Assembly (NCBI GenBank): GCA_046497485.1
Contig: JAWOFP010000060.1
Span: forward strand, 1-43,174
DNA from: Candidatus Nanohaloarchaea archaeon
Lineage (GTDB): Archaea; Nanohalarchaeota; Nanosalinia; Nanosalinales; Nanosalinaceae
Length of the DNA stretch: 43,174 bases
Reading direction: 5' to 3'
Below the pieces are notes generated by a model that had not been told where the DNA came from, made no database searches, and saw only the letters and a list, made by a program, of their open reading frames with translations. This document shows positions 3 to 43,174 of this stretch, piece by piece. Positions within the stretch are counted from its first letter, which is position 1. Each line of letters opens with the position of its first letter. The position numbers were made by a program, and so were the translations under genes.

Positions 3-896
3 GAAATTTCTGGCGATAGATATGTGGCAGAAGAACTAGTCGATTATGCGAAAGAGCAAGGCGTCCAGGGAATTTTACATACTGATGAAGACATAGAGAA
101 ATACGATTTAGTTGAGGAGTTTGAAGAAGTCGGAGATATGCTGAAGAAGAATGAAAAAGATGTTATCGCTTTGATCGCAGCACCGGAAGAACAGGCAAAA
201 TCAGCTGCGCAGAGAGTAAAGAAAAGAGCCGAGATTCTATATGAGGGAGAGATTCCTGAGGAGACCAGAGGTGCTGAACAGGACTTCACAACCAGCTACA
301 TGAGGCCTCTGCCTGGAGCAGCAAGAATGTATCCGGAAACCGATATCCCCTCAGTCAGGATCACAGATGAAAGAATTGAAGAAATAGACCAGAACTTACC
401 GGAGACTCTAGAAGAAAAAAGAGATAGATTGAAGGGTGAGATAGGCGAACAGCTAGCTGATCAAATAGTGAACTCCAGAAAGATAGGATTGTTCAACAAG
501 TTTGAAGACTCGGTCGATAGGAAAGATCTCGCTAATTATATCGTGAATACGCTTCCAAGACTTGAAAGCGAAGGCCTAGAAGTAGAAGAGCAAGATGCTG
601 AGAAAATCATCGAGGCCTTTTCTGAAGGTGAGTTGGAGAAAGGTCATTTGGAGAAGGCTTCAAAGCTTGCTGCAGAAGGGTCAGATGATCCTGTCAAAGA
701 AGTAGTTGAATCACAGGCCTCAGAAGATGAGATTGAAGAAGCAGTAAGAGAAGTAGTAGAAGAGAATGAAGAGATGATTGAAGAGCAAGGTATGAGGGCT
801 CAAGGCGCTTTAATGGGGGAAGTTTTAGGAAAAATCGATGCAGAAGGCTCAAAGGTTTCAAAAGTTCTTCAAAAAGAACTACAAGATAAAAATTAA
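3..896 (+). CDS. gatE: Glu-tRNA(Gln) amidotransferase subunit E, 5'-partial
   Basis: Motif PEETRGA...YMRPLPGAARMYPETDIP and a C-terminal Yqey-like tail (GMRAQGALMGEV). The frame is open to the window start. Confidence 0.95.
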   Translation, partial: EISGDRYVAEELVDYAKEQGVQGILHTDEDIEKYDLVEEFEEVGDMLKKNEKDVIALIAAPEEQAKSAAQRVKKRAEILYEGEIPEETRGAEQDFTTSYMRPLPGAARMYPETDIPSVRITDERIEEIDQNLPETLEEKRDRLKGEIGEQLADQIVNSRKIGLFNKFEDSVDRKDLANYIVNTLPRLESEGLEVEEQDAEKIIEAFSEGELEKGHLEKASKLAAEGSDDPVKEVVESQASEDEIEEAVREVVEENEEMIEEQGMRAQGALMGEVLGKIDAEGSKVSKVLQKELQDKN

Positions 897-1001
897 TGTT
901 TAAAGGCTTGAAATTGTGTTTAACTATTATTTAGCCCTCTAATTTTTTAAAAATATTATTTCTCCATGTCATTTATAATCTAGACGGTTTCAATAGTTAT
1001 T

Positions 1002-2165
1002 GTGACAATTTCAAATGATTTTAGAGGACAATCAGCTATTGAGTATTTGATGACTTACGGATGGATGCTGCTGGTTGTGGCGGTGGTTGGTGGTGCAGTA
1101 TTCTCAACTGTCCAAGGTCAGTGTAATGAGTCCGTCTCTGGGTTTACGGGTGCGGATGTTATGGTTGGCGATTTTGGATCTACTTCAACCGAAAAAATAC
1201 AGTTTGAGTTAAGGAACACTGGGTCGGAGAATGTGGAAATCAATAAAGTGACTTTTAGACAGGACAATACCTCTTTAAATATAGGCCCAAATCGCAAGAT
1301 AGAAGTTTCAGACACAGAGTTATTCAGTACTGATGGGTTTGTCGAATCTTCTTCATGTAACACTGTTGAAACCACGATAACCTATGATACTGAAACCCTC
1401 AGCAATTTGGAAGTTACAGGCACCTTGACAACTAGCGGAGAGGTTGTTGATATAACAAATGATGTTAGTAGCATTCCTCAAGATGATTTTCAGATGAGGT
1501 TTGACGCACAGAAGATTGGGAAAATTGATGGAGAAGAAGTAAACAAATGGAATGATCTAACTAATGGCGAGAACAATGCTACAGGAATCAATGATAGCCG
1601 ACTGCCCGAGGTGAATGCAGACGGAATAAATGGGTACCAGGCCCTAAAGTTTGAGCCAGAGCCTAAAGATATTCTAACGATGGAACATAAAAATTACTTG
1701 AAATCCAGGAATCATACTATCTTCGCTGTAGCACAGTTTAATGAGGTCTCAGGCACAGCTGCTGTGACATCAAAATATGAAACAGGAAGTAGGGTTAATA
1801 CTCTTCACATAGAAAACAACAAGACTTGGCTGAACTGGAATGACAACGAAGGATGGAAAAATTCTGCTGGAAGGACTAATGTTTCCAACAGGCCTAGAAT
1901 TTTGTCTACTCGTGTAGGTAAAAATATAACTGGTTATGTGGATGGTTCAAAGGATCTTAGCCAAAGAATAGATGATCCTCTAACTCTGAATGATGGTCCA
2001 GTCTCCTTTGGAGCTGTAGAATGCGGCTCTAGCTGTTCAGATTACTGGGAGCTCGACGGAAATATCGGGGAGATAATCTACTATAATAAGACTTTGAGTG
2101 ATTCGGAAATGGATGATGTTCATAATTATCTTTCACAAAAATGGAGTGTTCATATCTCTGAATAA
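1002..2165 (+). CDS. Type IV pilin-like protein with C-terminal LamG/concanavalin A-like domain
   Basis: Class III signal RG|QSAIEYLMTYGWMLLVVAVVGG. The C-terminal FDAQ...KWNDL...GNIGEIIYYNKTLSDSEMDDVHNYLSQKW pattern is typical of LamG-like folds. GTG start with TTTATAAT about 25 nt upstream. Confidence 0.8.
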   Translation: MTISNDFRGQSAIEYLMTYGWMLLVVAVVGGAVFSTVQGQCNESVSGFTGADVMVGDFGSTSTEKIQFELRNTGSENVEINKVTFRQDNTSLNIGPNRKIEVSDTELFSTDGFVESSSCNTVETTITYDTETLSNLEVTGTLTTSGEVVDITNDVSSIPQDDFQMRFDAQKIGKIDGEEVNKWNDLTNGENNATGINDSRLPEVNADGINGYQALKFEPEPKDILTMEHKNYLKSRNHTIFAVAQFNEVSGTAAVTSKYETGSRVNTLHIENNKTWLNWNDNEGWKNSAGRTNVSNRPRILSTRVGKNITGYVDGSKDLSQRIDDPLTLNDGPVSFGAVECGSSCSDYWELDGNIGEIIYYNKTLSDSEMDDVHNYLSQKWSVHISE

Positions 2166-2236
2166 TTAGTGATTCTAGGCCTTCGATGACTTTTTAACTT
2201 TTTATTGATGTAAGTAAAAATAGGTGAATTCTAATA

Positions 2237-3910: not shown

Positions 3911-3924
3911 GGCCTATTCCTCTA

Positions 3925-3962: not shown

Positions 3963-3971
3963 GGTAAACTT

Positions 3972-4015
3972 CCGTGGATTATAAATACCGTGGAACCGAA
4001 TTTTGTGCTAGGAGG
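3972..4015 (+). promoter_or_regulatory. Putative promoter of the pilus operon: TATA box flanked by CCGTGGA direct repeats, plus SD
   Basis: TTATAAAT at 3979-3986, CCGTGGA at 3972-3978 and 3988-3994, GGAGG at 4011-4015 before ATG 4028. Confidence 0.5.
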
Positions 4016-4027: not shown

Positions 4028-4741
4028 ATGTCTAATGACGAAGTACAGCTCGGTTCCTCAAATGATGAGGACTATGAAGTGGTTCCTGTAGGACCGATCA
4101 GAAAACTTGAGAGAAGAATTGATGAAATCCAGGAGCAGTCTCAGGAGGCTCAAGGCTCCAGCCATCAGGATGAACTGATCAGAGATGTTCTGGACATTAT
4201 GAAGTCAAATCAGAAAATTGTCAACGACATGACAGAATCCACTCACGAGCTGAAGAACTCTGTAGAAGACCTTACTCATAAGATGGATGAAACTATAGAT
4301 AACATGAATGCCTTCATGGACTTGCTTAATGAGGCCTCGGAAATGGATATGGAAGGCGAGATTGTTGGAGATATGGAAGGCCGTATCGCTGACGCTATCG
4401 GAAATAAGATGGATGAAGTAGCTCAGAACATGCATGAATCCAATCAAGAAGTTGTCAGCCAGTTAGATAATTTGAATGAAAGTATTAGAAAGTCCTATGC
4501 TTCTCAGTCGGCAAATAATAGTTCGCAGGTTCAGAGGAGTCAGAGACCGCAGCAGAATCAGAGACCTCAACAGTCACAGGCTCAGCAGTCTCAAAGACCA
4601 GATCAGGGACAGTCAAGCAATATGCAGCAGCCTCAAGGAGGACAGAATAAAGGTCAGGGATCTCAGGCCTCAAATGATTTTTCAAATGACGACAGGATGA
4701 AAAGGCTGAGGGAAAAGTTCGGAAATGTTGAAGAAGAGTAA
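4028..4741 (+). CDS. Coiled-coil protein with Q/S/N-rich linker, first gene of the pilus operon
   Basis: The likely start is ATG 4028, after an SD. Heptad-rich middle, Q-rich tail, and overlap with the next pilin gene. Confidence 0.75.
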   Translation: MSNDEVQLGSSNDEDYEVVPVGPIRKLERRIDEIQEQSQEAQGSSHQDELIRDVLDIMKSNQKIVNDMTESTHELKNSVEDLTHKMDETIDNMNAFMDLLNEASEMDMEGEIVGDMEGRIADAIGNKMDEVAQNMHESNQEVVSQLDNLNESIRKSYASQSANNSSQVQRSQRPQQNQRPQQSQAQQSQRPDQGQSSNMQQPQGGQNKGQGSQASNDFSNDDRMKRLREKFGNVEEE

Positions 4742-5198
4742 AGGAGTTACGCCAATCTTAGCAACTGTAATGCTGTTATTTATTGCTGTCGCAGCAGTAA
4801 GTAGCGCAGCTGTTTTCTTACAAGGAACTATAGATGGGATTCAAGAGGGTGCGGAAGATGAACTTGAGAGAGAAGAGTTAATTGAAAACTCTGATTTAAG
4901 GATTCAGAGCGGTTTCAATAGTTCACAGGGTTACATGCATATCGTTGTTAGAAACTCAGGTTCAGTGACAATGCCTGTAGTAGAGGACTCAGAAAAGGTG
5001 TGGAGTATCTTTGTTGAAAATTCTCCTAGAGATAGTTGGAGTGCTCCAGAAGATAGCATTGATCCAAATCAGATAATTAATATTAACACTACTGAACCTT
5101 ATCCAAGTAATCAAGATAGTAAAGAAGTTTCTATTAGTGCCCCTTATGAGACAACAGATAGCTATATCTGCTATAATGGCGGTTCAATCCGTTGCTAA
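4725..5198 (+). CDS. Archaeal type IV pilin
   Basis: KSKG|VTPILATVMLLFIAVAAV class III signal and a C-terminal Cys pair. Confidence 0.88.
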   Translation: MLKKSKGVTPILATVMLLFIAVAAVSSAAVFLQGTIDGIQEGAEDELEREELIENSDLRIQSGFNSSQGYMHIVVRNSGSVTMPVVEDSEKVWSIFVENSPRDSWSAPEDSIDPNQIININTTEPYPSNQDSKEVSISAPYETTDSYICYNGGSIRC

Positions 5199-5246
5199 AG
5201 TCTAAGTTATTTAAACCGGGAAGAACAATTCTATGATAGATATATT

Positions 5247-5822
5247 ATGTTCGGAACACAGAAAGGTATCACTCCTGTAATTGCGATCGTTTTACTATTA
5301 CTTGTAACGGTCGGAGCAGTAGGAGTGGTATACACACAGTTCCAGAGCTTGGTAGGAGACGGTCCAGAAGCAGATTTCTTGGACGCTCAGAATATTGATA
5401 TTGGTTTCCAGACCACAACCAGAAATGAATCTTGGGTATTGACTCCATCAGGAGATGACTTTAACACTATCCAGATAGGACTTGAGAATTCTGGGGAAAC
5501 TGAGTATAACATGACGGATGAAATGAGACTTGAATACAGCGTACCTGGTGAAGATAGAGTTCAAACTGGAGTTGTATCAAGTGCATTCGATGCAGTGGAT
5601 TACCGAGATGGGCCACATACTTGCTTCGATAACAGCGATATGACAAATGTCAGTCAAGACTGGGAGACATTTGGTCCTGGTGACGAAGTATCATGTAACA
5701 CTGGAGTCTCAATGCCAAGCCCTGATGATGAAGTAGAGATTCATCTCGTTCTTGAAGGATCAGGAGATGAAATTACTTCATACACTTGTAGTCCTTCTAC
5801 AAGTGACAGCACAACTTGTTAA
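5247..5822 (+). CDS. Archaeal type IV pilin (candidate major pilin)
   Basis: QKG|ITPVIAIVLLLLVTVGAVGVVY. It has its own TATA (ttatttaaa near 5207) and a T-rich terminator after it. Confidence 0.9.
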   Translation: MFGTQKGITPVIAIVLLLLVTVGAVGVVYTQFQSLVGDGPEADFLDAQNIDIGFQTTTRNESWVLTPSGDDFNTIQIGLENSGETEYNMTDEMRLEYSVPGEDRVQTGVVSSAFDAVDYRDGPHTCFDNSDMTNVSQDWETFGPGDEVSCNTGVSMPSPDDEVEIHLVLEGSGDEITSYTCSPSTSDSTTC

Positions 5823-5824
5823 AA

Positions 5825-5860
5825 ATTCTTTTTTCACATATTTTTCCCTTTATTTTATAT
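5825..5860 (+). terminator. T-rich terminator after the pilin gene
   Basis: ttctttttt...tttttccctttatttt immediately after the stop codon. Confidence 0.5.
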
Positions 5861-5883
5861 TCAGGCCTTTCAAATAACGGGTT

Positions 5884-6525
5884 ATGAAGGGTCAGACCCA
5901 GGCGGTTACTGCAGTTATGATAACCGGTATTATGATAGGAACTATAGCAGCAGTCTATGTTTGGGGAACGCCACTGCTTGAGAAAAGAGAAAGCCAAGCA
6001 CAATTAAATCAGGTACAGGGAGATGTAATTAGTCTGAGGAACAGTATTGAGTCCACTAGTAACAGTGGAGAAGGCTCAGCTTCTGAAGTAACTATTAGGG
6101 TCTCTCAAGGTTCAGTAAATGTAAACGAATCAGGCAATTATATTGATGTAACAACCTATACTGAAGGCTCTTCATATCCTTTAGAAGCCTGGAGAATAAT
6201 AGATGGAAGCAATCTGCAAGGCCTGAGTATAGGATCAGGAGATTATGGATTACAGGGAGAAGATAGTCCTGGAGTTGTCGCGGCGAGAGCCCAGGAAGGA
6301 GGGTCTGAAGATAGAGTAACTTTCAGAATAGAGTTCAGAAATCTTTTAGATTCTCAAGACCAGGAGGTTGAATTAACCAATCTGCAAGTTGCAGGTTCAC
6401 CTGAATCAAATGGCGAAACTGTGATCTCTCTATCAAATCAAGGTGTAGAGTCCGATAGTCTTGAGATAAATACTGGTGAAGATTTTGATAGAGAAAAAAC
6501 CAATTTACGGGTGACTTTGTCATGA
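5884..6525 (+). CDS. Minor pilin-like protein
   Basis: MKG|QTQAVTAVMITGIMIG followed by a beta-rich acidic domain. Confidence 0.8.
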   Translation: MKGQTQAVTAVMITGIMIGTIAAVYVWGTPLLEKRESQAQLNQVQGDVISLRNSIESTSNSGEGSASEVTIRVSQGSVNVNESGNYIDVTTYTEGSSYPLEAWRIIDGSNLQGLSIGSGDYGLQGEDSPGVVAARAQEGGSEDRVTFRIEFRNLLDSQDQEVELTNLQVAGSPESNGETVISLSNQGVESDSLEINTGEDFDREKTNLRVTLS

Positions 6526-6911
6526 AAGGCCAGTATTTGGCTGTGGAATCTGTACTTACATTTGGTTTAGGCCTAGTTCTAGCTATAGGAGTTATCAGTG
6601 CTTTTGAAACATATAGCTCAGGAATTTACGATGCTTCAGAAGAGGTCCAGGCTTCTATAATTCAAAACAGGGTGCTTGAAACGTTTAACGTCTTACAAGC
6701 ATTAGAAGGCTCTGCAGAAGTTGAGTTAGATCTTCCAGAATCGGCAGGCAATAGGGATTACAGGGTTGAAGCCTCAGATAATGTAGCTGTTATTACCGAT
6801 TCAAATGAGTATGAAAGAGAGTTGTCTATAGACGGCTCTGTAACCGGTTCTGGTTCAGGCGAAATTAGAATAGTAAAATCCGGAAATAGTTACGAGATAA
6901 GTGATAGATGA
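6522..6911 (+). CDS. Minor pilin-like protein
   Basis: MKG|QYLAVESVLTFGLGLVLAIG, with ATGA overlaps on both sides. Confidence 0.8.
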   Translation: MKGQYLAVESVLTFGLGLVLAIGVISAFETYSSGIYDASEEVQASIIQNRVLETFNVLQALEGSAEVELDLPESAGNRDYRVEASDNVAVITDSNEYERELSIDGSVTGSGSGEIRIVKSGNSYEISDR

Positions 6912-8620
6912 TGGGTATAGGAGGGCTAATTGAGAAACTAAGAAAAGCAAAGCATCCAGAGTGGTACGAAGAGGAAGATAAGGAAGAAGAGGATCATAAA
7001 TTAAAAGGTGATGGTGTTGAGATTCCGTCTCCTGGGCCTTTCAGTCCTGATGATGTTCAGGATTTCTCCGATGATGAAAAGCTGAGTGATGTGGATGTTA
7101 CATATCCTTTGATTCCTTCCGAGCCTGAGGATGGCGAAATGGTATATGCATGGGCTCACATAAAGTGGGATGAGCAAAAGGGAGAGCTTATCTATAATAT
7201 TATAGAGCCAGATCTTACCCCTAGAACTGAAGCCGTCCTTGAGAAAATTCAGGATATTATGGAGCGAAGCTTTGATATTACACTGGATGATCTTGAGGCT
7301 GGAGAGGCAGACGATTACCTTGCTGAAAAGATTGATATGATTGTCGATAAGTATGATATTAGCTTGACTGACGATCAAAGAGAAATTGTCAGATACTATA
7401 CAAAAAGAGACTTCGCAGGCCTAGGAAAACTCGAACCATTGATGAGAGATACAGAGGTAGAGGATATTTCATGCGATGGTATAGATATTCCAGTATTCGC
7501 TTACCACAGAAATCCTCGTTATGGTTCACTGAAGACAAGCATAGAATGGGATGACTCTGAAGAACTGGATAAGTTCGTTATGAAAATGGCTCAGAGATGT
7601 GGTAAGTCTATCTCGGTCTCCAGTCCATTACTTGACGGTTCACTGCCTGACGGATCTCGTGTTCAGGCAACACTGGCGACAGATATTGCTAGAAAGGGTT
7701 CAAACTTTACGATTCGACGCTTCACAGAAGATCCATTAACGCCTATTCATATGATGGACTTTGAGACAGAAAATGCACAGATGCTTTCATACCTCTGGAC
7801 AATGGTTGAACATGGAAAATCGACTCTAGTCTGTGGAACTACAGGAGCAGGTAAGACCTCACAACTTAACTCTCTATCGCTTTTCATCAGGCCTGATAAG
7901 AAAATTGTATCGATTGAAGATACTCCAGAGCTTAGACTTCCTCACGACCACTGGGTGCCGGAAGTTTCGCGTTCAGGATTTGGTTCCAGTGCTGATGGAA
8001 GCGGAGAAGTATCTATGGACCATCTTTTGAAGGAGTCTCTGCGTCAGAGGCCTGAGTATATTATCGTTGGTGAGGTGCGTGGTGAAGAGGCTTATATTCT
8101 GTTCCAGCAGATGGCAACGGGACACACAGGTCTTTCCACTATCCACGCAGACTCTTTGGAGATGCTTATGGATCGTTTAACAACTCAGCCGATTGATCTT
8201 TCACCTTCTCTTATAGAGACTCTTGACTGTATTATGCTTATCAAGAGGTTGAGAAGAGATGGATCCTATATTAGAAGGATTACAGGCCTATACGAAGTTC
8301 TAGGATACGATAAGCGGAAAGGTATTGATGAAAACAAGGTTTTCGGTTGGAATCCTCAGAACGATGAGTATGTGGTTGAGAATAAGTCCATGATGCTGAA
8401 ACAGATTGCGGATCAGAATGGTATCAGTCATGAGAAGGTTAAACGCGATTTGAGGAATAAGCAGCATGTTCTGAATTACATGCAGGAAGAGCAGATTAAG
8501 CATTACAGGAAGGTAGGAGATATTATTTCTAGGTATTACTCTGATCCTGAGTCTGTGGTTGAAGAGATAGGAGAAACATTTAACTCCAAGGAAGAAGAAG
8601 TAGAGCTTAGCGATGCTTGA
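6908..8620 (+). CDS. Type II/IV secretion (pilus assembly) ATPase, PilB/FlaI/TadA family
   Basis: Walker A GTTGAGKT, SIEDTPEL Asp box, LRQRPEYIIVGEVRG and TGH...TIHA His box. Confidence 0.96.
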   Translation: MMGIGGLIEKLRKAKHPEWYEEEDKEEEDHKLKGDGVEIPSPGPFSPDDVQDFSDDEKLSDVDVTYPLIPSEPEDGEMVYAWAHIKWDEQKGELIYNIIEPDLTPRTEAVLEKIQDIMERSFDITLDDLEAGEADDYLAEKIDMIVDKYDISLTDDQREIVRYYTKRDFAGLGKLEPLMRDTEVEDISCDGIDIPVFAYHRNPRYGSLKTSIEWDDSEELDKFVMKMAQRCGKSISVSSPLLDGSLPDGSRVQATLATDIARKGSNFTIRRFTEDPLTPIHMMDFETENAQMLSYLWTMVEHGKSTLVCGTTGAGKTSQLNSLSLFIRPDKKIVSIEDTPELRLPHDHWVPEVSRSGFGSSADGSGEVSMDHLLKESLRQRPEYIIVGEVRGEEAYILFQQMATGHTGLSTIHADSLEMLMDRLTTQPIDLSPSLIETLDCIMLIKRLRRDGSYIRRITGLYEVLGYDKRKGIDENKVFGWNPQNDEYVVENKSMMLKQIADQNGISHEKVKRDLRNKQHVLNYMQEEQIKHYRKVGDIISRYYSDPESVVEEIGETFNSKEEEVELSDA

Positions 8621-9488
8621 AGAATACGCTGAATTCTGTTACAATCAGGTCGGAAGCTATGTTTTAGACTTGGTTCAGTACTTTGAAGACTTGAGGCCTC
8701 AGCTCTCTAAGGCAGGAATCGAAATTTCCTTACCTGAATATCTCAGTATGATGTTCTTCACAATCGGGATAGTAGGACTTTTCACTTTGACAGTTGGTGG
8801 AACTGCGATGGTTCTCACTTCAGGCCTCGCAGGAATAATGATGGCCTTTATTGCTTCTATTGTGCTTTCAGTGGTGACTGCTCTCGGTTTCTATATCTAT
8901 CCTTCTATAATGATAAGCAGTAGAGCATCCAGAATTAAGGATACTCTTCCTTTCGCTACAATGTATCTCGCTACACTCTCAGGGACAGGTACACCTCTTC
9001 CAAAAATATTTCAGAATCTTTCAGAAGTTGACGAATATGGTGAAGTATCTAGAGAGGCTGAAAATATTGCAAGAGACATCAATACATTTGGAATGGATGT
9101 ATCCGAGGCCTTAGAGCGTTCAGCTAATAGAAGTCCTAGTGAGGACTATAAAGAACTTATGTGGGGAATTAACCATGTTATAACTACAGGAGGTTCACTT
9201 AGAGATTTCTTAAATCAGAGAGCAGAAAGCTTAATGAATAATTACAAGAGAAGGATTGAGGAGTTCTCTGAGCAGCTCTCTTTACTCGTTGAAATGTATA
9301 TTACGGTTGTAGTTGTAGGTTCAATCATATTTACATCTATGAGCGCAGTTATGAGTACTATTTCTCAGAATATGACGCCTGATCAAATTGTCGCCCTACA
9401 AATTGGAGCGATTTTCTTTGGGTTGCCTTTAATTTCAGGCATGTTTATCTTACTTGTACAGGGAATGGCGCCAGGTGGTATAAGATGA
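8613..9488 (+). CDS. Type II secretion system F domain protein (TadB/TadC/PilC-like)
   Basis: Multiple TM helices, LPFATMYLATLSGTG...ALERSANRSPS motif, adjacent to the ATPase. Confidence 0.92.
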   Translation: MLEEYAEFCYNQVGSYVLDLVQYFEDLRPQLSKAGIEISLPEYLSMMFFTIGIVGLFTLTVGGTAMVLTSGLAGIMMAFIASIVLSVVTALGFYIYPSIMISSRASRIKDTLPFATMYLATLSGTGTPLPKIFQNLSEVDEYGEVSREAENIARDINTFGMDVSEALERSANRSPSEDYKELMWGINHVITTGGSLRDFLNQRAESLMNNYKRRIEEFSEQLSLLVEMYITVVVVGSIIFTSMSAVMSTISQNMTPDQIVALQIGAIFFGLPLISGMFILLVQGMAPGGIR

Positions 9489-10543
9489 TTGAGTTCTTTA
9501 AGGAGGAAGAATATGAACCAGGCTACGCGACCGAAGACAAGATAATCTTCGGTAGCTTGGCTTTAGGAGCAGTAATGATTATAATAGGGATGATTATTTA
9601 TTCCTCAGTTTCGATCCAAATTGGAGGTCTAACGATTTTATTAGGGCTTATGACTTCAGTTCTTCCATATGGTATCATATCTTTTCTGAGAAACCGCGCG
9701 GTTACAGAGATGGAAAAGCAGTTCCCTTCGTTTCTGAAAGACTTGGCTGAGTCCAAGAGAGGAGGAATGACAATTCTAAAGTCATTTGAATCTGCGAAGG
9801 AGACAGATTATGGAAGATTAAATAGAGAGATTGATAAGGTCCATAACCAGCTATCTTGGGGTATTCCCTTCCCAATTGTGATGGAAAGATTTTCCAAGAG
9901 GTTGAAGGACTCTCCTGTAATACAGGAGTCTGTCTCAATTATTTTACAGAGCTACAAGAGTGGAGGACAGATTACAGAAACAATTGAGTCTGTGGCCGAT
10001 AATGCAACGATGCTTAAGGAAGTAATAGCAAGCAAAAATTCAATGCTTAAACAACAGCTAGTTATTATGTACGTAATTTACCTTTTATTCATAGGTATCA
10101 CGGTGGGGATCTACTTTTTGATGCAGCAACTACTAGGGCTAGGTTCTACTGATCCAGGAGCACTAGGAGCAATAGCTGAATCTGATATTATCGGTGGCGG
10201 AGGCGGAGGTAGTGGCGGTGAAGGAGGCGAAGCTATTGTAAACTGGTGTTCAGGAGATATTATGTGGGCTGAACCGTTTTGCGGTATTTCACAGGTTTTC
10301 GGATTTGTACCTGGAAATATAACTGATTTAAGCAGTGCAGCTGCAGAAGAAAGAGCTTATGGACAGATGGCTTACTATAAATCAGTCTTCTTCTCCATGC
10401 TTATGATTCAGGGAATCTGCAGTGCAGCAGTTGCAGGTCAGATAAGCGAAGGAAGTCCAAGCGCAGGAGTTAAACACGCAATGATAATGATGCCTGTAGC
10501 ATTTCTAGTATTCATGCTGGTAGTAAGGCCTATGGGGTTCTAG
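9485..10543 (+). CDS. Second T2SS F domain protein (TadC/PilC-like)
   Basis: FPSFLKDLAESKRGGM...DYGRL...LSWGIPF and C-terminal AGQISEG...GVKH. Confidence 0.92.
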   Translation: MIEFFKEEEYEPGYATEDKIIFGSLALGAVMIIIGMIIYSSVSIQIGGLTILLGLMTSVLPYGIISFLRNRAVTEMEKQFPSFLKDLAESKRGGMTILKSFESAKETDYGRLNREIDKVHNQLSWGIPFPIVMERFSKRLKDSPVIQESVSIILQSYKSGGQITETIESVADNATMLKEVIASKNSMLKQQLVIMYVIYLLFIGITVGIYFLMQQLLGLGSTDPGALGAIAESDIIGGGGGGSGGEGGEAIVNWCSGDIMWAEPFCGISQVFGFVPGNITDLSSAAAEERAYGQMAYYKSVFFSMLMIQGICSAAVAGQISEGSPSAGVKHAMIMMPVAFLVFMLVVRPMGF

Positions 10544-10545
10544 CT

Positions 10546-11358
10546 ATGAAAGGGCAGACTACACTGGAGTTTGTTGGAAGCGCGTTATTCTTTATTTTAG
10601 TAATCTTAGGAGTTTTTACTTTAACTGCAGACCAAATACCACAGTTCTATGATACTACGGAAGTAGCTGAAAAGAATTTAGAGGCCAAATATTTGACTGA
10701 TCACCTTTTAACATCAAATCACAGCAGTGAATCAGGACTCGTCAATGAGTATATGCATGTAGATAAAGACTATATAGAAAATGATATTGCAACGGCTAGC
10801 TCATCTAAATATAATAATACTCAGTTAACTAGAGATTTAGGCCTTGAAAACCGTTTTAATATTCGTTTTACATGGTATCCTGTTGTTGAGACTGATAAGA
10901 CATTTACTAGGACCTATCCTCCGACAATAGACGGCGAAACTGTTAAAGAACCTAGTAATGAATATTCTAACGCAGGCAATAGGGTTCATTATGGCAATAT
11001 TACTTTAAGCGGAAGCGAGGAACAATTTCTAGTGACTTCAGATGATGGAGATTATGTTAATGTCTATCATCACAGTGATGAGAACTGGGATTTCCGTACA
11101 AATCCTGACCAAGAAGGAGATATAATTGATACAACTAATGCAGGCGACTTTAGGATAGAGGCTATTCAGAACAGGCCTGATACTCCTGGGGCTTCAATAG
11201 TTCTCAGTAGGCCTATTGAGTTCTCTGATGGACGAACTTACTTTGGCTCCAGCCAGAACACTACGGAAGGAGATGTGATCAAGCTAACGAGGTATCCTGT
11301 ATTAGATGATCCTGACAGCAGCAATGAACTTGCGAAGATGGAGGTTTTAGTATGGTAA
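10546..11358 (+). CDS. Minor pilin-like protein
   Basis: MKG|QTTLEFVGSALFFILVILG (Q at +1, E at +5). Confidence 0.8.
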   Translation: MKGQTTLEFVGSALFFILVILGVFTLTADQIPQFYDTTEVAEKNLEAKYLTDHLLTSNHSSESGLVNEYMHVDKDYIENDIATASSSKYNNTQLTRDLGLENRFNIRFTWYPVVETDKTFTRTYPPTIDGETVKEPSNEYSNAGNRVHYGNITLSGSEEQFLVTSDDGDYVNVYHHSDENWDFRTNPDQEGDIIDTTNAGDFRIEAIQNRPDTPGASIVLSRPIEFSDGRTYFGSSQNTTEGDVIKLTRYPVLDDPDSSNELAKMEVLVW

Positions 11359-13154
11359 AAGGCTTAGGCTATGCTTTAGAGGCGATAGTAGCAATGCTGA
11401 CGATACTTTTATTCAGTCTAGGAGCCCTTCAAATCTCTGGACCCGATCAGGACTGGAGCAACTATCAGAGAGAAGTAGCAGCCCATGATCTTACTTATTC
11501 TATGGAAGCAACTGGTCATACTGAGGCCTTTATGAAAAGAAGTGAAACTGGTTCGTTGCAGACATCTATGACGACTATTTCCGATAGAGATATGGAGGTT
11601 TCAGGCCTTCTATCTCAGTTACCTGTAAATGAGCTTCGAGTCGGTTACTATACTTTGATTGATGATCGGAAGAGCCAGACACTGAGTACTGTGGATTCAG
11701 GCGATCCATGTGAAGGAGATCTAGATGAGTTGGAGGATTTCTCTTCTGATCCTATAATCAAAACCGAAGGTAACTTGGAATCTGTCCATAATGTCACACT
11801 ATATTTCGGGAATACGAACTCTACGTCCTCAACGCAGAGAGCAGGATATGATGCATTATGGGTGGATAACGGGACAGAGTGCCAGTTTGGGGCCGATGAA
11901 GGACCATATTATCTAGATGAAATATTTTTCTGGGGAGATAAAGATACATCATTTAGAAATGACTACTATGATTTCAAATCAATTGAATGGGATGGTGGTT
12001 CAGGATCATCAGAATTTTATAATGCGACACAGCCAGTTAATCTGACAAATTCTATGATGCCAGGCCCTAATGGAATTAAAACAGATATCAGTATGGATAT
12101 GGTTGATGTATCAGGCCTCGAATCAGAGACATTTGATATCGCTGTTTTCAGAGAAAACGATGCTTTAGGAGAGGTAGTCGGAGATTATGATTTAATGCAG
12201 GACTTGGTTCAGGAAGGCTCAGTAATGTTTATGATGGATTTACAGCAAAATGATATTACAAACTATGACTTCCTTGATAATACAGGCATCTCATGGATGG
12301 ATCTAGGATATCAGGGAGGTTATTCTGGCGGCGAAACCGATGCAGCTTTTTCAACGGAATCAGACTCAATCAAAGTTGATACATATTATACGGGACTGGA
12401 AGGGTCAGATAGTTTCAAGATGAGTCCTCCAGGAAAAGTAATCTCTAACACCTCTGAGGATTTGAGGCCTTCCAGAACAATTTACTCTAATACTGAAAGA
12501 TATGATTCTTCAGATTGGCAGAGAAATGATACAGATATGACAAATATCACAGATCACCCTGATAAACCTGATAGTCAGTGCTACAGCAACTTTGATGATT
12601 CTTCTGAATATCCATTGTCTGAAGGTGAAATAGATTTCCCGAATGGTAACACAGTTGGAGTTCTAAGCGCGAAGCTAGGGAGTAATAATCAGGCCTGCAA
12701 CAATTTAATTGAGAGAGGCCTGAAATTTGATTTCAACGATGACGGAGATTATGAGTCTGATCTATACCTGAATGGGGAAAATGTTGAAATCAGCGGAATT
12801 GAATATTTCATTGAAGCCAACAAAGATCCTAACACTAACTCCGGTTGCAGTCACTGGGGAGATTGTGCCAACTTCATTCCTTCAATAAGAGATAGTGGAG
12901 ACTTTGTAGAATTAATGATTACTCGTGACAGATTCCAAGATATGAGCGGTAATAGATTTGCTTTAACAGGTTACCAAAATCCTTACAGTGAAGATCAGAA
13001 CAAGGCTATTGCTTCTACAATGTTCTGGCTAGCACAAACTGAACAAACTTTTGAGGGAACAGAGGATCCTAGTAATATTGATTCAAGGTCATTTGGAAGT
13101 ATTGATGGTTCTGCCTATCTGCCGTATAATCTTGATTTGAGGTGGTCGGATTGA
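11352..13154 (+). CDS. Large pilin-like/adhesin protein (600 aa)
   Basis: MVKG|LGYALEAIVAMLTILLF followed by a large acidic Cys-containing ectodomain. Confidence 0.75.
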   Translation: MVKGLGYALEAIVAMLTILLFSLGALQISGPDQDWSNYQREVAAHDLTYSMEATGHTEAFMKRSETGSLQTSMTTISDRDMEVSGLLSQLPVNELRVGYYTLIDDRKSQTLSTVDSGDPCEGDLDELEDFSSDPIIKTEGNLESVHNVTLYFGNTNSTSSTQRAGYDALWVDNGTECQFGADEGPYYLDEIFFWGDKDTSFRNDYYDFKSIEWDGGSGSSEFYNATQPVNLTNSMMPGPNGIKTDISMDMVDVSGLESETFDIAVFRENDALGEVVGDYDLMQDLVQEGSVMFMMDLQQNDITNYDFLDNTGISWMDLGYQGGYSGGETDAAFSTESDSIKVDTYYTGLEGSDSFKMSPPGKVISNTSEDLRPSRTIYSNTERYDSSDWQRNDTDMTNITDHPDKPDSQCYSNFDDSSEYPLSEGEIDFPNGNTVGVLSAKLGSNNQACNNLIERGLKFDFNDDGDYESDLYLNGENVEISGIEYFIEANKDPNTNSGCSHWGDCANFIPSIRDSGDFVELMITRDRFQDMSGNRFALTGYQNPYSEDQNKAIASTMFWLAQTEQTFEGTEDPSNIDSRSFGSIDGSAYLPYNLDLRWSD

Positions 13155-13462
13155 AAGGGCAGTTCATGGTGGTTTCTGCAGTTATCGGAGGTCTCATAAT
13201 GATCTCGCTTGGGTCTGTTATATCGGAAGTTGAGTCCCAGACATTTGAGCCGGAAGATACTCAGCACCAGTTTAGCTATATTGAGAGGGAAGCAGATGAA
13301 ATTTATGAAGGAGGAACGCCTTCCAATGTTGAACAAGAGAATTTTGTTGATTTAGTGAACGAGTTAGATTATAGGAGTGGTGTAGAGTTTGGAGCAGATC
13401 ATGTCAATGTAACGCTAGAGAGTCCTGGCGAAACCTATAGGCTTCAAAGACTGGGAGATTAA
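13151..13462 (+). CDS. Small pilin-like protein
   Basis: Probable TTG start overlapping the upstream TGA, giving MKG|QFMVVSAVIGGLIMISLG. Confidence 0.75.
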   Translation: MKGQFMVVSAVIGGLIMISLGSVISEVESQTFEPEDTQHQFSYIEREADEIYEGGTPSNVEQENFVDLVNELDYRSGVEFGADHVNVTLESPGETYRLQRLGD

Positions 13463-14643: not shown

Positions 14644-14646
14644 AAT

Positions 14647-25573: not shown

Positions 25574-26236
25574 ATGGGAGTTTTTGATGACCTGAAGGAT
25601 TCTGTTACAGCCTCCGATAAGTCAAATAATAGTAAAGGAAGGCATGGTCGTTCTTCAAATAACGATATGGATTTCGGGTCCGATATCGGATCGGATATGG
25701 GAAATGATTCTTCTGGAAACGACTTTGACCAGTTAGGCTCTCAAAATAGCCCTCAGAAACCTGGCTCACGATCTCAGAACCAAACCAACCCGAATTCTCA
25801 GAATAATCTAAATAACGGGAATAGAGGTCAGAGACAGTCTCCAAACAATCAGGCTCAGTCTGGGGCTCAAGGCCGCTCAGGCCCTCAAGGAAACTCTCGA
25901 AATCAGAGGCCTAATCAATCAAATAACCCGTCAAATCAGTTTTCTAATAATCAACCTTCCAATAGTCAAGGAGGAAATAATCCAAGTCAAGGCCGGAACC
26001 GGTCTCAAGGAAATTCTCAGAACTTTCCGAATGGCCAGGCTGGAAGGCCCAAACCGGGTAGCGATCAGCCGCAGTTAAGCCGAAATACTCAGAAAAAAAT
26101 GGAGAACGCAGGCCTAGACCCATCAGGAAATAATTTACAAGGTAATGTTGCTGATTCTAGAGAGGGAATTGAAGAGTTGAAGGCTCAGAACGATCAGATA
26201 ATTGAATTATTGAAAAGGATTAATCAGAGGCTTTGA
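25574..26236 (+). CDS. Low-complexity N/Q/S/G-rich protein with C-terminal coiled coil
   Basis: ATG after a TATA-like element. Disordered core and C-terminal IEELKAQNDQIIELLKRINQRL. Confidence 0.75.
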   Translation: MGVFDDLKDSVTASDKSNNSKGRHGRSSNNDMDFGSDIGSDMGNDSSGNDFDQLGSQNSPQKPGSRSQNQTNPNSQNNLNNGNRGQRQSPNNQAQSGAQGRSGPQGNSRNQRPNQSNNPSNQFSNNQPSNSQGGNNPSQGRNRSQGNSQNFPNGQAGRPKPGSDQPQLSRNTQKKMENAGLDPSGNNLQGNVADSREGIEELKAQNDQIIELLKRINQRL

Positions 26237-30477: not shown

Positions 30478-31005
30478 ATGGATCGAGAACAGGTCGAAAA
30501 ATATATTGAATACTACGATAAAACTCAAGGCCTTCTACCGGAAAAATTGGAGGAGTATAGAGACAAGTTTAAGGAAAAAGGATTTTTGACCCAACAGGAT
30601 CTGTATGAACTTGCGTACGAATCATCAACTAGAAGCGCATACCATGTAAGAAAGAATTCTAGGGGAAGATGTAGAGAAGTCACCTCTAATTTATCCAAGG
30701 TAAACGATGATTTCTCCCAAATTGCTCTGATAGAGGCCTTGAAAGGATTTAAGGCTCCCACAGCTTCAGTTATATTGACTGTAAAAGATCCTGAAAGACA
30801 TGCAGTTGTTGATACAAGGGTTTGGGCATCATTAGAAAGACTTGGTTATCTAGAGGGTAGAAAAGAATGTTTCACTGCTGATGACTATGTTAAAATGATT
30901 GGACCGATAAGAAAAATAGCAAAAGAAACAGGGTTTACTACTGAGAAAATAGGTTATGCTCTTTTCGCTATGGATGTAGATAAAAGAGAAGGAACCTTAC
31001 ATTAG
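30478..31005 (+). CDS. Hypothetical protein, possible HhH DNA-glycosylase-like fold
   Basis: LKGFKAPTASVIL...AVVDTRVWASL resembles an HhH motif followed by a catalytic Asp. Confidence 0.55.
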   Translation: MDREQVEKYIEYYDKTQGLLPEKLEEYRDKFKEKGFLTQQDLYELAYESSTRSAYHVRKNSRGRCREVTSNLSKVNDDFSQIALIEALKGFKAPTASVILTVKDPERHAVVDTRVWASLERLGYLEGRKECFTADDYVKMIGPIRKIAKETGFTTEKIGYALFAMDVDKREGTLH

Positions 31006-32655: not shown

Positions 32656-33261
32656 TTATTGCTTACTGGCTAGCACCCATAGATGGTCTTCATCCCTCCA
32701 GTCTTCTTCGTAAGTCTCTATTATCTCAAATCCTGATTCTTCTATTATTTCCAGTGTTTTCGTTCCTTCATATGAGCTCCACTGAATTTCTGCGCCGTTC
32801 CATGATTCCTTCAAATTTTCCATTTCTGTAGAGGCTACTGTTACAAGGATGTATCCTTCTGGTTTTAACCAGTCGTTAATCTGTTCAAATAGTTCTCGGT
32901 GCTCCTCTCTAGGGATGTGAAAGATGGCGTAGAAACTTACTACTGCGTTGAGAGATTTATTATCTATATCAACTTCAAAGAAGTCTCCTTGAACAATTTC
33001 TGCTTCAGGAACATTTTCTCTAGCTTTCTCAACATGCTTCTCCGCTATATCAACTCCTATCAAATCATAACCATTATCGATTATATATCGATTAAATGGA
33101 AGTCCTGTTCCACAGCCTAGATCTAAAATCTGTCCTGAACTGCCTAATTTATCAAAAAGTTTCTGAAATAGCTCTTCTTCCTCCGGACGGATTTCTCTCC
33201 CTTCTCTATAGAGGCCTTCGTAATCGGCCTCTTCGTAGCCTTCCTTTACATCTTCGCGCAT
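32656..33261 (-). CDS. Class I SAM-dependent methyltransferase
   Basis: ILDLGCGTG, GVDIA, AIFHIPRE and LKPEG motifs. Confidence 0.92.
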   Translation of the reverse strand: MREDVKEGYEEADYEGLYREGREIRPEEEELFQKLFDKLGSSGQILDLGCGTGLPFNRYIIDNGYDLIGVDIAEKHVEKARENVPEAEIVQGDFFEVDIDNKSLNAVVSFYAIFHIPREEHRELFEQINDWLKPEGYILVTVASTEMENLKESWNGAEIQWSSYEGTKTLEIIEESGFEIIETYEEDWRDEDHLWVLASKQ

Positions 33262-34354: not shown

Positions 34355-34490
34355 GGGGGTGTAGCTCAATCTGGGAGAGCGACCGCCTCCAGAATCTTTA
34401 CTGGAGGGATGAGGCCTTTACCTGGCCAATGATTAAACCTTTACATTTGGAGATAGCGGTAGGTCGCAGGTTCAAATCCTGTCGCCCCCA
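34355..34490 (+). tRNA. trnW: tRNA-Trp(CCA) with a 62-nt intron at 37/38 (34393-34454)
   Basis: Acceptor stem GGGGGTG/CGCCCCC, D stem GCTC/GAGC, anticodon stem ACCGC/GCGGT, T loop TTCAAAT. The BHB-type central helix CTCC/GGAG has 3-nt bulges. CCA is not encoded. Confidence 0.95.
34393..34454 (+). ncRNA. Intron-encoded box C/D-like guide RNA (predicted Cm34 of tRNA-Trp)
   Basis: Guide CTGGAGG (34401-34407) is complementary to tRNA positions 31-37. D-like ATGA at 34409-34412, GGCC/GGCC hairpin, C-like ATGATTA at 34429-34435. Confidence 0.65.
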
Positions 34491-40030: not shown

Positions 40031-40032
40031 AA

Positions 40033-41528: not shown

Positions 41529-41564
41529 AGCTACAACTTGCTAAAGTCCAAATATAAAAACCTG

Positions 41565-42506
41565 CTATAAGGCCGATAATAGGAACAGAACAAATAAGAT
41601 TGATAATCCAAATAAAACAATTTTCAGGTTGTCAGCGAGTTTTTCACGGTAGTCTGTTAGAGGCTTAACATTAAATCCGATTAAGACGAGGTATCCGGCC
41701 AGTACTGCTGCTAAAAGGTTTATCAGTAATACTTCTAGGCCTAAAAACATTTTTGAAAAGTTTTGAAGGAATAAGGCCTCAGCTGAAACAACTGCTGGAG
41801 GAACTATTGCTACTGCAAGCGCTGCACCAGCCATCTCCTCCTTATACTCGGATATGAATGTAAGTACCGCTGCTCCTCCTACAAATACTGATAAAGCGAT
41901 TACTTCAAGGCCATCAAGTAAAACATTGATTTCTGCTTCTCCAAAGATTGCAAATACAGGGATTGAGGATAGAGCAACGAGTAAAGTCCCCAGACTTATC
42001 GATTTTAGACTTGAAGCCAACATTTTGCTGTCTCCCATAGCCATAGAAACTGATAGAGATGAAAGTGGGTAAAGTAAAGGCGCTAACAGTATTGCGCCAA
42101 TTAAAACTATTAAGTTTCCTGTTGTCAGGCCTATTCCTGCGATCGCACCAGCTAGGCCTAGCATTACCCACTGTGCACGGTTTAAAGTTGCGGACTTCTG
42201 AGCCTTACTGTAAATCTCCTGGTTGGAAAGTATGCTGTTGGATGCTCCTTTTGTCGAAGCGCCTTTTTCTATAAGGCTTTCTTGTTCGAAGACTTTGATG
42301 CTTAAGTCGCCTGAATCAACATCCAAGGCCTTTAATTCATCTGTTAATTCATCCAAATCTTCTTGGCTTATTGTAGCGGTCAGTTCAATAAACTTGCTGT
42401 CCTTCTTCTCAATTTCGGAAGAGCTGATCTCATCGGTGTACTCTTTGATTACTTCCTCTGCATCGTCCTCAAACTTTGAAGGGATATCTATCTTTACTTC
42501 CCGCAT
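41565..42506 (-). CDS. DUF389/TIGR00341 family membrane protein
   Basis: IGAILLAPL and GAALAVAIVPP motifs with a soluble N-terminal domain. Confidence 0.85.
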   Translation of the reverse strand: MREVKIDIPSKFEDDAEEVIKEYTDEISSSEIEKKDSKFIELTATISQEDLDELTDELKALDVDSGDLSIKVFEQESLIEKGASTKGASNSILSNQEIYSKAQKSATLNRAQWVMLGLAGAIAGIGLTTGNLIVLIGAILLAPLLYPLSSLSVSMAMGDSKMLASSLKSISLGTLLVALSSIPVFAIFGEAEINVLLDGLEVIALSVFVGGAAVLTFISEYKEEMAGAALAVAIVPPAVVSAEALFLQNFSKMFLGLEVLLINLLAAVLAGYLVLIGFNVKPLTDYREKLADNLKIVLFGLSILFVLFLLSAL

Positions 42507-42538
42507 AGAAATACTAGGCCTTTCATTCCATATAAATT

Positions 42539-43174
42539 TCAGGACCTGACTTTGAGGTTATCTCTTTGATAAGCGCTCAAAATTCTTCCTGATAACTCGC
42601 TGCTTTTAGTCAGTGAAACTTCCCCGGATTTTCCTACTGTAGCTGTGAATAGAAACTCGTCGCCGTCATAGACATCGACTTCTTTACCAGACAACGACTC
42701 TGCTACATCTACTATTACTGAGTTACCGGATTCACGGACATCAAAGTCTACTTCAGACTTCAAGGTCTGAGACTTGGGCTCGACTGTTATGTTCAGGCCT
42801 AAATCCTTCTCCAGTTTGTCTATATTTTCTCCACCTTTTCCAATTACTTGGGAAATCTCATCTTCCTCTACAAACATTTTGATGTGGTTGTCCGAGATAA
42901 ATTCAATTTCTGGATTGTCTACTCGTCCTCTTAGAAAGTGCTCGATCTGTTCCTTCGCCAGTTTTTCAGCACCGGATTCTTCTCTTTCATCAACCGGTAT
43001 AACAACGGTCTCCTCGCCGTAAGTATAGACTTCGTAAACTGGCCTAGAGTCTTCAAATGTCCTGATCTGGATAACAGGCCTTGCTAGGTCTTCTTCCGTC
43101 ATTCCTTCTGGAACTTTTACAACCATTTCAAGCTCGTAGACTTCCGCTACTTCTGCATCTTCGATAAATATTAC
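42539..43174 (-). CDS. PINA (PIN-domain ATPase with KH domain), 5'-partial
   Basis: The frame is open to the window end: VIFIEDAEVAEVYELEMVVKVPEGMTEEDLARPV, KH motif VIGKGG and FLFTATVGKSG. Confidence 0.9.
   Translation of the reverse strand, partial: VIFIEDAEVAEVYELEMVVKVPEGMTEEDLARPVIQIRTFEDSRPVYEVYTYGEETVVIPVDEREESGAEKLAKEQIEHFLRGRVDNPEIEFISDNHIKMFVEEDEISQVIGKGGENIDKLEKDLGLNITVEPKSQTLKSEVDFDVRESGNSVIVDVAESLSGKEVDVYDGDEFLFTATVGKSGEVSLTKSSELSGRILSAYQRDNLKVRS

Follow-up and report, generated by a model that had tools for sequence, protein, structure and literature searches.

The AGGCCT palindrome in the window

The stretch analysed here (the window) is the whole 43,174-nucleotide contig JAWOFP010000060.1 of a Candidatus Nanohaloarchaea archaeon (assembly GCA_046497485.1), a tiny halophilic symbiont, and our subject is the palindromic hexamer AGGCCT that recurs along it. 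Between positions 303 and 43081 there are 141 exact copies against 6.7 expected from base composition, a 21-fold enrichment at 3.3 per kb, in good agreement with the initial annotation of this DNA, which had estimated about 140 copies and about 20-fold. Individual copies and the other features referred to below are:

303..308, AGGCCT copy read as AGG-CCT (Arg-Pro), codon phase 0, gatE/gatB-family frame 3-896
572..577, AGGCCT copy in phase 2, GAA-GGC-CTA, in the gatE/gatB-family frame
613..618, AGGCCT copy in phase 1, GAG-GCC-TTT, in the gatE/gatB-family frame
2177..2182, intergenic AGGCCT copy upstream of the thermosome gene
9106..10531, longest interval without AGGCCT in the window (1,420 bases), across pilus platform genes
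32656..33261, minus strand, class I S-adenosylmethionine (SAM) methyltransferase
34355..34490, plus strand, tRNA-Trp(CCA) with a 62-nt intron (Rfam; ARAGORN with introns)

The word therefore falls in all three codon phases within gatE, and a copy at 34412 lies inside the tRNA-Trp intron, both as previously described. Copies reported as intergenic at 2177, 5863, 34310 and 42516 are indeed so, while the status of the one at 4013 depends on the start of the following gene: it is intergenic with a start at 4028, but not with one at 3974. The nanohaloarchaeal host proposed earlier is supported by the thermosome gene, since its six best relatives (76-85%) are all named nanohaloarchaeal records.

Genome-wide enrichment

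The genome to which the window belongs (G000; 967,558 bases in 66 contigs, with 1,069 genes and 87% coding in the gene calls made here) carries 3,249 copies, found on 66 of 66 contigs at 1.83-5.84 per kb. With an order-1 Markov model the observed-to-expected ratio (O/E) comes to 14.8, and with an order-2 model, whose background is itself raised by the word, to 6.4. All 18 one-mismatch words lie at 0.65-1.40 (order 1) compared with 14.8 for AGGCCT itself, which substantiates the impression that such relatives are far rarer. Genic copies number 2,774 against a mean of 394 in 20 synonymous-codon shuffles, a sevenfold excess, with each phase up 5- to 8-fold (494/964/1,316 observed, 94/123/178 shuffled). 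A dicodon Markov null predicts 511 and 842 copies in the two three-codon phases, where 964 and 1,316 are observed; phase 0 is itself a dicodon and so lies outside the reach of this null. Spacers hold 459 copies (3.75 per kb). The initial annotation had named three ways in which the excess could turn out to be trivial: by vanishing under codon- and dicodon-preserving shuffles, by being confined to the window, or by following from the frequency of GGCC alone. In our data the excess survives the synonymous shuffles and, in the two testable phases, the dicodon null; it extends to every contig; and 3,249 of the 4,609 GGCC in the genome belong to AGGCCT. Together with the occupancy and tripeptide imprint described below, the shuffles bear out a force acting on DNA rather than a codon or amino-acid bias. 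No strong positional pattern with respect to gene starts and stops was observed, and the flanks show a weak symmetric preference for T at -3/-4 that is seen in spacers too.

Protein imprint, spacing and core genome preference

Most positions at which the encoded protein permits the word carry it, namely 2,755 of 4,120 in G000 (67%), 60% in the rich relative G022 and 73% in the rich relative G005, compared with 3.6% in the poor genome G024. AGGCCT has also reshaped proteins at the amino-acid level: the tripeptides that permit it exceed shuffles by 1.72 in G000, 1.35 in G022 and 1.75 in G005 (0.99 in G024), and at 61-66% of G000 sites in orthologues the residues of the other genome would not permit the word. 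Additionally, AGGCCT avoids neighbours closer than about 30-75 bases. Gaps shorter than 25 bases occur 53 times in G000 against 262 expected, and occupancy is 0.12 with a neighbour at 6-12 bases, 0.55 at 24-48 and 0.73-0.75 beyond 100. The best spacing fit is a symmetric short-range term with a decay length of 30 bases in G000, 14 in G022 and 7 in G005, without any far-neighbour effect on site occupancy in these three genomes; gap-splitting models did not improve it. Generic hairpin avoidance was rejected as the cause of this exclusion because short-range depletion is not seen for inverted pairs of other hexamers.

AGGCCT is frequent in the core genome and sparse in foreign or recently gained DNA. 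Occupancy reaches 0.71-0.74 in core genes compared with 0.56 in genes without relatives in three genomes, and in G000 the longest gaps lie over an integrated element, the cas genes, several toxin-antitoxin-like genes and a number of highly expressed ones, part of these labels being our reading of the sequences. The element is:

G000:C59:5253-11743, nearly AGGCCT-free integrated element carrying an integrase-like gene and a D5-type helicase

Regarding the strictness of the word, one-sided AGGCC[ACG] exceeds GGCC words that lack both flanks by a factor of 1.7-3.4 in G000, G022 and G005 (1.1-1.2 in poor DNA), at an O/E of only 1.2-3.8. The steps from neither flank to one-sided and from one-sided to full palindrome are equal in G022 (2.5 and 2.6), and are 1.7 and 12.4 in G000. 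On a larger scale, a site-density peak at a period of about 39 kb has a height of 6.3 (noise about 6.3) in G022 and 8.6 (noise 5.9) in G005, two genomes that are not independent; G000 is too fragmented for periodicity.

Several minor observations concern the same subjects. An element in G022 (L140) related to that of G000:C59 carries AGGCCT at 2.4 per kb, and the operon on G000:C45, whose genes we take to be cas8/7/5/3/4-like, is absent from G022, G024 and the examined 71% of G005. The word is looser in G022 (L124-L176), L395 and L411, with one-sided GGCC at 3.4-3.8 and neither-flank words at 1.5, and flank preferences vary by lineage (AAGGCCTT in G022; AGAGGCCT and ACAGGCCT in G005).

Gain and loss among relatives

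Twelve of 70 genomes of the class are AGGCCT-rich (G000-G003; G010, G049, G050; G022, G057, G058; G005, G060). All of them, together with the intermediate G004, belong to the family of the window, where the rich ones fall in four genera of kin, non-independent genomes. The word also reaches 2 or more per kb in 11 independent metagenome loci and is absent from sister lineages of like GC. Four of the six closest thermosome loci are rich, including L015 (SG9, 77 in 21.6 kb) and L018 (Nanosalina VS9-1, 89 in 21.6 kb), named records that may overlap the 70-genome set and are left out of the count of independent cases; the remaining 74 archaeal thermosome loci include no rich one. In the thermosome tree, whose deep forks are unresolved, the rich genera do not form one clade.

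Between the window and L386 (79% identical DNA) 50 of 77 sites are kept against 14.8 expected, although part of this conservation reflects high equilibrium occupancy as synonymous sites are near saturation. Intergenic divergence in this comparison is 0.05 inside sites versus about 0.18, and the bases beside sites diverge at the background rate. In addition, two lineages inside the rich clade, L394 (0.8 per kb) and L389 (0.4 per kb), are losing the word. L394 is the sister of L393 (3.9 per kb; support 1.00); 15 of its 16 remaining sites coincide with a site in a rich relative, and 8 of the 39 L393 sites survive in it. Inner one-off words stand at 1.5 in L394, the tripeptide imprint persists at 1.43 for the two decaying loci, and codon phase shapes which one-off words replace a lost site. 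Since L394 and L389 lose the word while their relatives keep it, there is an active force that keeps it and that can be lost. AGGCCT is kept at exactly six bases, fills two-thirds of the permitted positions and decays in the lineages that do not keep it. No strong replacement word was seen in poor DNA, either in G024 or in 20-kb loci.

L389 and L394 have a GC content of 0.37-0.38 compared with 0.40-0.43, and the L394 branch is longer than that of its rich sister, as if recombinational repair had weakened. Among 40 of about 1,856 differences between contigs of one study, data in which runs X2 and X3 have small shares, none lies inside a site (0.8 expected) and one creates a site at 26045.

An AddAB-like gene pair accompanies the word

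Outside the window, the genome holds two adjacent genes that resemble the subunits of the helicase-nuclease AddAB, and poor G024 holds an altered version of them:

G000:C62:17323-19833, addB-like gene (836 residues)
G000:C62:19830-22499, addA-like gene (889 residues)
L148:2912-8227 (G022), addB-like and addA-like genes
L203:8661-14031 (G024), addB-like gene and nuclease-less addA-like gene, with a 97-residue gene between them that is presumably RelE-like

Judging from its domains, the second gene would encode an AddA-type subunit with a superfamily 1A (SF1A) helicase and a C-terminal RecB-family nuclease. It matches Pfam UvrD and PDDEXK_1, and the RecB-like helicase model PRK13909 extends over 246-902 (E 8e-40); the matches to PRK13909 and to the addA models lie below the curated cut-offs. 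The AddB-like protein (836-854 residues, upstream gene) carries PDDEXK_1 at its C-terminus and is likened by Atlas, as a single source of evidence, to 'ATP-dependent helicase/nuclease subunit B' (0.96), with residues 1-460 like ADDB_N clusters (0.91); its N-terminus is also likened by Atlas to Halo_UvrD_like clusters. Conserved motifs of the AddB-like protein include L-T-x-D and F-A-x-T-P-R-R. The family is wide in archaea (87 close homologues, 628 representatives) and evolves fast, with 37-43% identity between genera against a median near 60%. The pair sits in changing gene neighbourhoods across G000, G022, G005 and G024. The G000 pair holds 26 AGGCCT in 5.2 kb and the G024 pair none. In G024 the AddA-like protein misses its last 150 residues, so that the nuclease domain is lost, and the AddB-like protein has a four-residue deletion in a conserved N-terminal motif. 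Eight poor genomes have an AddA copy that ends near residue 752-776, a recurring helicase-only variant.

The AddB-like gene is found in 12 of 12 rich genomes, five of which are only 68-82% complete, versus 16 of 37 poor genomes of the family, and in 12 of 12 rich genomes the AddA-like match reaches residue 881-913, that is, the nuclease is kept. Within genus g2, the rich G005 and G060 have the pair (2/2) and the poor G059, G061, G062 and G063 do not (0/4). The 37 poor genomes of the family divide into 21 without the pair, 2 with an AddB fragment only, 4 with a nuclease-less AddA only, 5 with mixed or second copies and 5 with a whole pair. Ratios of AGGCCT to the control word TCCGGA, a crude yardstick, are 4.3-17.2 in rich genomes, 5.05 in G004, 0.32-1.42 in poor genomes with a whole pair, 0.46-1.63 in mixed ones and 0.15-1.20 in the other 27, including 0.28-0.81 in the four with only a nuclease-less AddA. 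A ratio above 1.20, a cut-off chosen after the data were seen, occurs in none of the 27 family genomes without a nuclease-bearing pair and in 17 of the 23 with one. Fisher p values by genome range from 7e-8 (strict) to 7e-6 (lenient); by the four rich genera, the chance is 0.0003-0.035. Both genes are missing from all of family f4 (0/8), where no genome is rich. ACCGGT is mildly up in poor DNA with or without the AddAB-like pair.

A possible Chi-like role

These associations suggest that AGGCCT could be a Chi-like stop signal read by the AddAB-like helicase-nuclease at C62:17323-22499, a proposal to which we give about even weight. If it works as AddAB of B. subtilis does, the pair would enter at a DNA end and cut both strands while unwinding them, until the helicase-like N-terminus of the AddB-like subunit binds AGGCCT on the 3' strand and silences the nuclease of AddA, so that a 3' tail remains for RadA. 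With a low probability of recognition per site, sites would add up independently, and a larger number of them would limit the DNA lost at breaks and improve survival and integration of kin DNA; either selection or a recombination drive could then fix sites even at an amino-acid cost. A palindrome would be read from both directions and so bring a doubled benefit, two sites in one enzyme footprint would be redundant and give short-range exclusion, and once the pair or its nuclease is gone, the word would be free to decay. The properties of Chi predict the pattern observed, namely dependence on the AddA nuclease, additive distant sites, redundant close sites and scarcity in foreign DNA. In this regard, each chi is reported to act in Caulobacter with a probability of about 0.23, and chi sites within a cluster do not act independently of one another (PMC5443536); at such recognition per site and with such non-independence, short-range exclusion without a far-neighbour term is what would be expected. 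The broader claim is that nanohaloarchaea possess an AddAB machine of bacterial type for end resection, together with a dedicated Chi. This Chi would be the first in archaea and the first palindromic one, would have rewritten thousands of codons and would decay upon loss of the enzyme or of its 3'-strand nuclease; the word would also be the first highly iterated palindrome whose reader is identified. The prospects of this claim fall just short of even.

Several findings weigh against a Chi-like role. Known Chi sites are non-palindromic, and AGGCCT, being its own reverse complement, lacks their polarity. It is also some 15 times denser than E. coli Chi. The latter occurs about every 5 kb and has been argued to follow codon usage, in a study that calls computational Chi prediction inadequate and warns that sequence statistics do not suffice to call a Chi (10.1101/2021.07.08.451572). 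B. subtilis and E. coli Chi are described as sharing G-rich GxGG ends (PMC3321194), which AGGCCT lacks, and deletion of addAB in Synechococcus is reported to have left the effect of the cyanobacterial palindrome HIP1 intact (10.1101/2024.09.10.611283). In G000 the full palindrome stands 12-fold above the one-sided word, beyond what two independent halves would give, which fits a dimeric binder too. Indeed, a dimeric duplex binder accounts for palindrome and spacing equally well, without a named gene, and a perfect-stopping model, in which benefit scales with gap length, was rejected by the spacing. At the protein level, the AddB-like family gave no PDB match by sequence up to E 1, none of the 26 AddB-like relatives scanned shows an ADDB_N sequence match, the AddB-like proteins of rich genomes are not one clade (the nearest of G022 outside its own genus are those of poor G017 and G007), and no residue separates rich from poor in three AddB N-terminal motif windows.

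The comparative association has its own weak points. The pair is necessary in the sample and not sufficient: G007, G017, G069, G014 and G047 have a whole pair and are poor, and in family f3 the genes occur in 9 of 10 genomes, none of them rich, with no enriched word seen in the 4.6-kb pair loci of some f3 genomes. Kin genomes are not independent and four genera represent few independent events, the g2 split alone gives p = 0.07, and in G004 the AddB-like gene runs over contig ends. Lastly, some twenty genes or families were tried in the search for a cause; twelve candidate genes besides the AddAB-like pair did not pass the co-occurrence test.

Those candidates came in part from a screen for G000 genes that G022 shares and that G024 lacks or has only in much weaker form (60 rows, 51 after a coverage filter), which covered G022 and G024 whole and G005 for 71%. 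G024 is a biased negative because of its GGCC restriction-modification, so the screen may have dropped true candidates, and about ten metabolic or membrane genes common to the three rich genomes were left out of profiling. The AddAB-like pair came from the Chi hypothesis and not from the screen, as G024 has it in truncated form. Rejected candidates include a PF01555 match, below cut-off and in its own genome only, which we take to be a tRNA methylase-like gene; a DnaG-like gene (25/41, mostly poor genomes); an ADP-ribosyltransferase-like protein of 146 residues (0/5 genomes, two of them rich); a 208-residue protein of unknown function also present in poor G018; a Cdc6 paralog (5/5 genomes); an AbrB-linked GNAT, absent from the complete rich G010 and G057; a small winged helix-turn-helix (wHTH) protein (5/5, poor genomes included); and HhH-GPD, with only weak paralogs in 5/5. 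An HD protein and unknown proteins of 328 and 408 residues were profiled and do not track AGGCCT, and ThiI was likewise profiled and rejected as the cause. The archaeal DnaG-like gene at L124:10034-11149 (G022) was not found in the complete G018 and G024 or in 7 of 7 f4 genomes searched.

Alternative explanations

The pair might only enable a drive through recombination of kin DNA, with AGGCCT being read by something else, for instance a component of the pilus or of DNA import, as in uptake sequences and the HIP1 proposal. Such an arrangement, which we regard as unlikely, would explain why the pair is necessary yet not sufficient, and is consistent with the type IV pilus genes in the window and with ongoing exchange (some G022/G005 genes are 80-95% identical against a median near 60%). 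HIP1 is also reported to aid transformation independently of addAB (10.1101/2024.09.10.611283) and to correlate with transformation genes (PMC13756078). However, no second gene tracks AGGCCT among those tested, and the DNA-uptake role suggested in the initial annotation gained no positive support: DprA (PF02481) is found in 0 of 5 genomes, a search whose control rings in 11 of 14 and in which ComEC was not included. Uptake signals are usually longer and tolerate mismatches, whereas the inner one-mismatch words are flat here. Equally improbable in our view is a dimeric duplex-binding protein that organises the nucleoid or chromosome, an option also named in the initial annotation, for which about one site per 300 bases would be selected and whose footprint would exclude close pairs, the link to AddAB being shared history. 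The strict palindrome with synergy of both halves in G000, the exclusion lengths of 30, 14 and 7 bases in G000, G022 and G005, the symmetric weak preference for T at -3/-4 in spacers too, and the weak 39-kb period in G022 and G005 all fit such an organiser, and HIP1 has been argued to serve chromosome structure (PMC5861425). Nevertheless, no such gene tracks the word (the small wHTH and the Cdc6 paralog are each in 5/5 genomes, the GNAT is absent from rich G010 and G057), the 39-kb peak does not rise above noise in G022, a genome not independent of G005, and a link to the AddA nuclease is not predicted.

The initial annotation named, among others, an orphan methyltransferase with methyl-directed repair. 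In the corresponding model (Elhai's, for alternate highly iterated palindromes) a methyltransferase, its own or supplied by the host, would mark AGGCCT or GGCC and repair would ratchet sites in. GGCC methylated at the inner C offers the G-meC site that the model needs (PMC4390886), and the methyltransferase traffic proposed between symbiont and host (PMC11001535) would allow a host enzyme. The data do not support this explanation, which we hold to be quite improbable: no methyltransferase is common to G000, G022 and G005 in a six-frame motif scan (71% of G005, whole G005 for PF00145), MutS is found in 0 of 5 genomes, NucS in 62 of 70 regardless of AGGCCT, and there is no repair halo, 4-fold-site divergence being 0.58 within 15 bases of a site versus 0.54 beyond 100, values near saturation. 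A C5 methyltransferase occurs in one of seven clearly rich genomes examined (G000 only) and in 8 poor ones, and the window methyltransferase at 32656..33261 was rejected as the cause, being present in 7 of 12 rich and 9 of 37 poor genomes. The methyltransferase loci concerned are:

L001 (G000:C53:98-4274), C5 methyltransferase beside a McrB-like AAA ATPase and a likely McrC partner
L220:488-2386 (G024), HaeIII-like C5 methyltransferase and NgoPII-family nuclease, a GGCC-type restriction-modification pair
L003:1456-3355 (G020), HaeIII-like C5 methyltransferase and NgoPII-family nuclease, a GGCC-type restriction-modification pair

The first of these, a defence island, sits on the contig poorest in AGGCCT (1.83 per kb). 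The G024 methyltransferase matches M.HaeIII at E 2e-95 and GGCC stands at 0.41 in that genome. Both genomes with a HaeIII-like methyltransferase and an NgoPII-like nuclease are depleted in AGGCCT rather than enriched, and are among the poorest; the nuclease is found only in these 2 of 70. GGCC restriction is thus rejected as a general cause of poor genomes; G021 is equally poor (55 copies) without this nuclease. Finally, codon, dicodon or compositional bias, or an assembly artefact, is refuted as an explanation: codon phases do shape the one-off words that replace a site, but the word stands sevenfold above synonymous shuffles and above dicodon nulls, is equally dense in spacers, and recurs in 12 genomes and 11 independent metagenome loci while absent from sisters of like GC.

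Comparison with known systems

Like the Chi of AddAB/RecBCD (B. subtilis AGCGG, E. coli GCTGGTGG; PMC3321194, PMC5443536, 10.1101/2021.07.08.451572), AGGCCT is a short genome-wide word. It is tied to an addB-addA-like pair with a UvrD motor and two PD-(D/E)XK nucleases, its link hinges on the nuclease of AddA, which is what Chi turns off, it is sparse in foreign DNA and its close copies are not independent. The likeness to HIP1 (GCGATCGC) noted at the outset, that of a hyper-abundant and frame-independent palindrome, is upheld by the 14.8-21-fold excess in all frames and spacers and by the sites conserved between relatives. As with HIP1 and alternate palindromes such as CAGGCCTG in Synechococcus PCC 6312 (PMC4390886, PMC5861425), the word is patchy across lineages and conserved between relatives, with one-off variants mainly at the outer bases. 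Unlike HIP1, AGGCCT has six bases and 3.4 copies per kb (0.2-2.73 per kb are given for HIP1; PMC5861425), no cognate methyltransferase found and no MutS (5 genomes), and short-range exclusion rather than a demonstrated 10-90 kb period; it tracks an AddAB-like pair, whereas the HIP1 effect is reported to survive addAB deletion (10.1101/2024.09.10.611283).

The uptake signal sequences (USS) of Haemophilus and the DNA uptake sequences (DUS) of Neisseria are words of another kind, for DNA uptake. AGGCCT resembles them in its thousands of copies, protein imprint and self-marking, and differs in having no DprA (5 genomes), no methyltransferase, no inner one-mismatch enrichment and no receptor identified. 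Methylated RAATTY of C. jejuni has been described as an uptake-type word (10.1101/2024.09.10.611283). Furthermore, UvrD-Cas4-like (pfam12705) helicase-nuclease fusions, predicted to be RecB/AddB-nuclease-like, are reported from bacteria and mesophilic archaea (PMC5704561). As in the pair, an SF1 helicase and a PD-(D/E)XK nuclease are joined here in one archaeal protein, but these fusions are described there in restriction-modification or stand-alone contexts, without an AddB-like partner of about 850 residues and without a sequence signal (PMC5704561). We file AGGCCT under neither palindromes of the HIP1 kind nor Chi, because the methyltransferase test and the polarity test both came out negative, the Chi function being ascribed by analogy; the word is HIP-like in genome statistics, may be Chi-like in action and fits neither class fully.

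According to a 2026 preprint, archaea lack RecBCD/AddAB and no chi sites have been identified in them (10.64898/2026.05.08.723854), and the function of highly iterated palindromes is described as open for three decades (PMC5861425, PMC13756078). In the accessible main text of two nanohaloarchaeal methylome papers 'GGCC' does not appear (PMC11001535, PMC10266531). The initial annotation knew of no archaeal description, and neither AGGCCT or such palindromes in archaea nor a link to AddAB or Chi was found in the literature searched, which covered few subscription journals and excluded supplements. New here is that 12 of 70 class genomes are rich and that all have an AddB-like gene beside a nuclease-keeping AddA-like gene. 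The palindrome exceeds every HIP1 in density and comes with a single concrete candidate of two genes, with natural variants that have lost the nuclease and with lineages in decay, which turns an unexplained genome signature into a simple biochemical question. A Chi-like role, an idea absent from the list in the initial annotation, is where the comparative evidence points; it would provide a case of a repair signal overriding protein-level constraint (permitting tripeptides 1.7-fold versus 0.99 in a poor genome). AGGCCT could also be used as a binning and foreign-DNA marker for these symbionts.

Other observations

A virus scan for triple sites gave at least 122 loci, mostly chance or tandem repeats, with no evident nanohaloarchaeal virus among the matches listed. 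AGGCCT is the top hexamer in the viral loci L271 and L302, with 13 and 15 copies in 6.2 kb, where about 1 is expected and three are due to the search pattern. A C5 methyltransferase-like protein is encoded in L271, and neither locus looks halophilic. Genes 75-95% identical between G022 and G005, where about 60% is usual, lie at L131:9559-11205, L136:4310-6621 and L146:13737-15695 (G022), their sequences pointing to probable recent exchange between genera. In the window itself, a type IV pilus cluster (4725-13462; pilin-like genes, ATPase, two platform proteins) follows the thermosome gene, and an OGG-like glycosylase gene with 67-72% identity across the family of the window lies at 30478-31005. 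ACGT is strongly avoided in G000 (O/E 0.49) and G024 (0.32), and not in G022 or G005, suggesting another restriction history.

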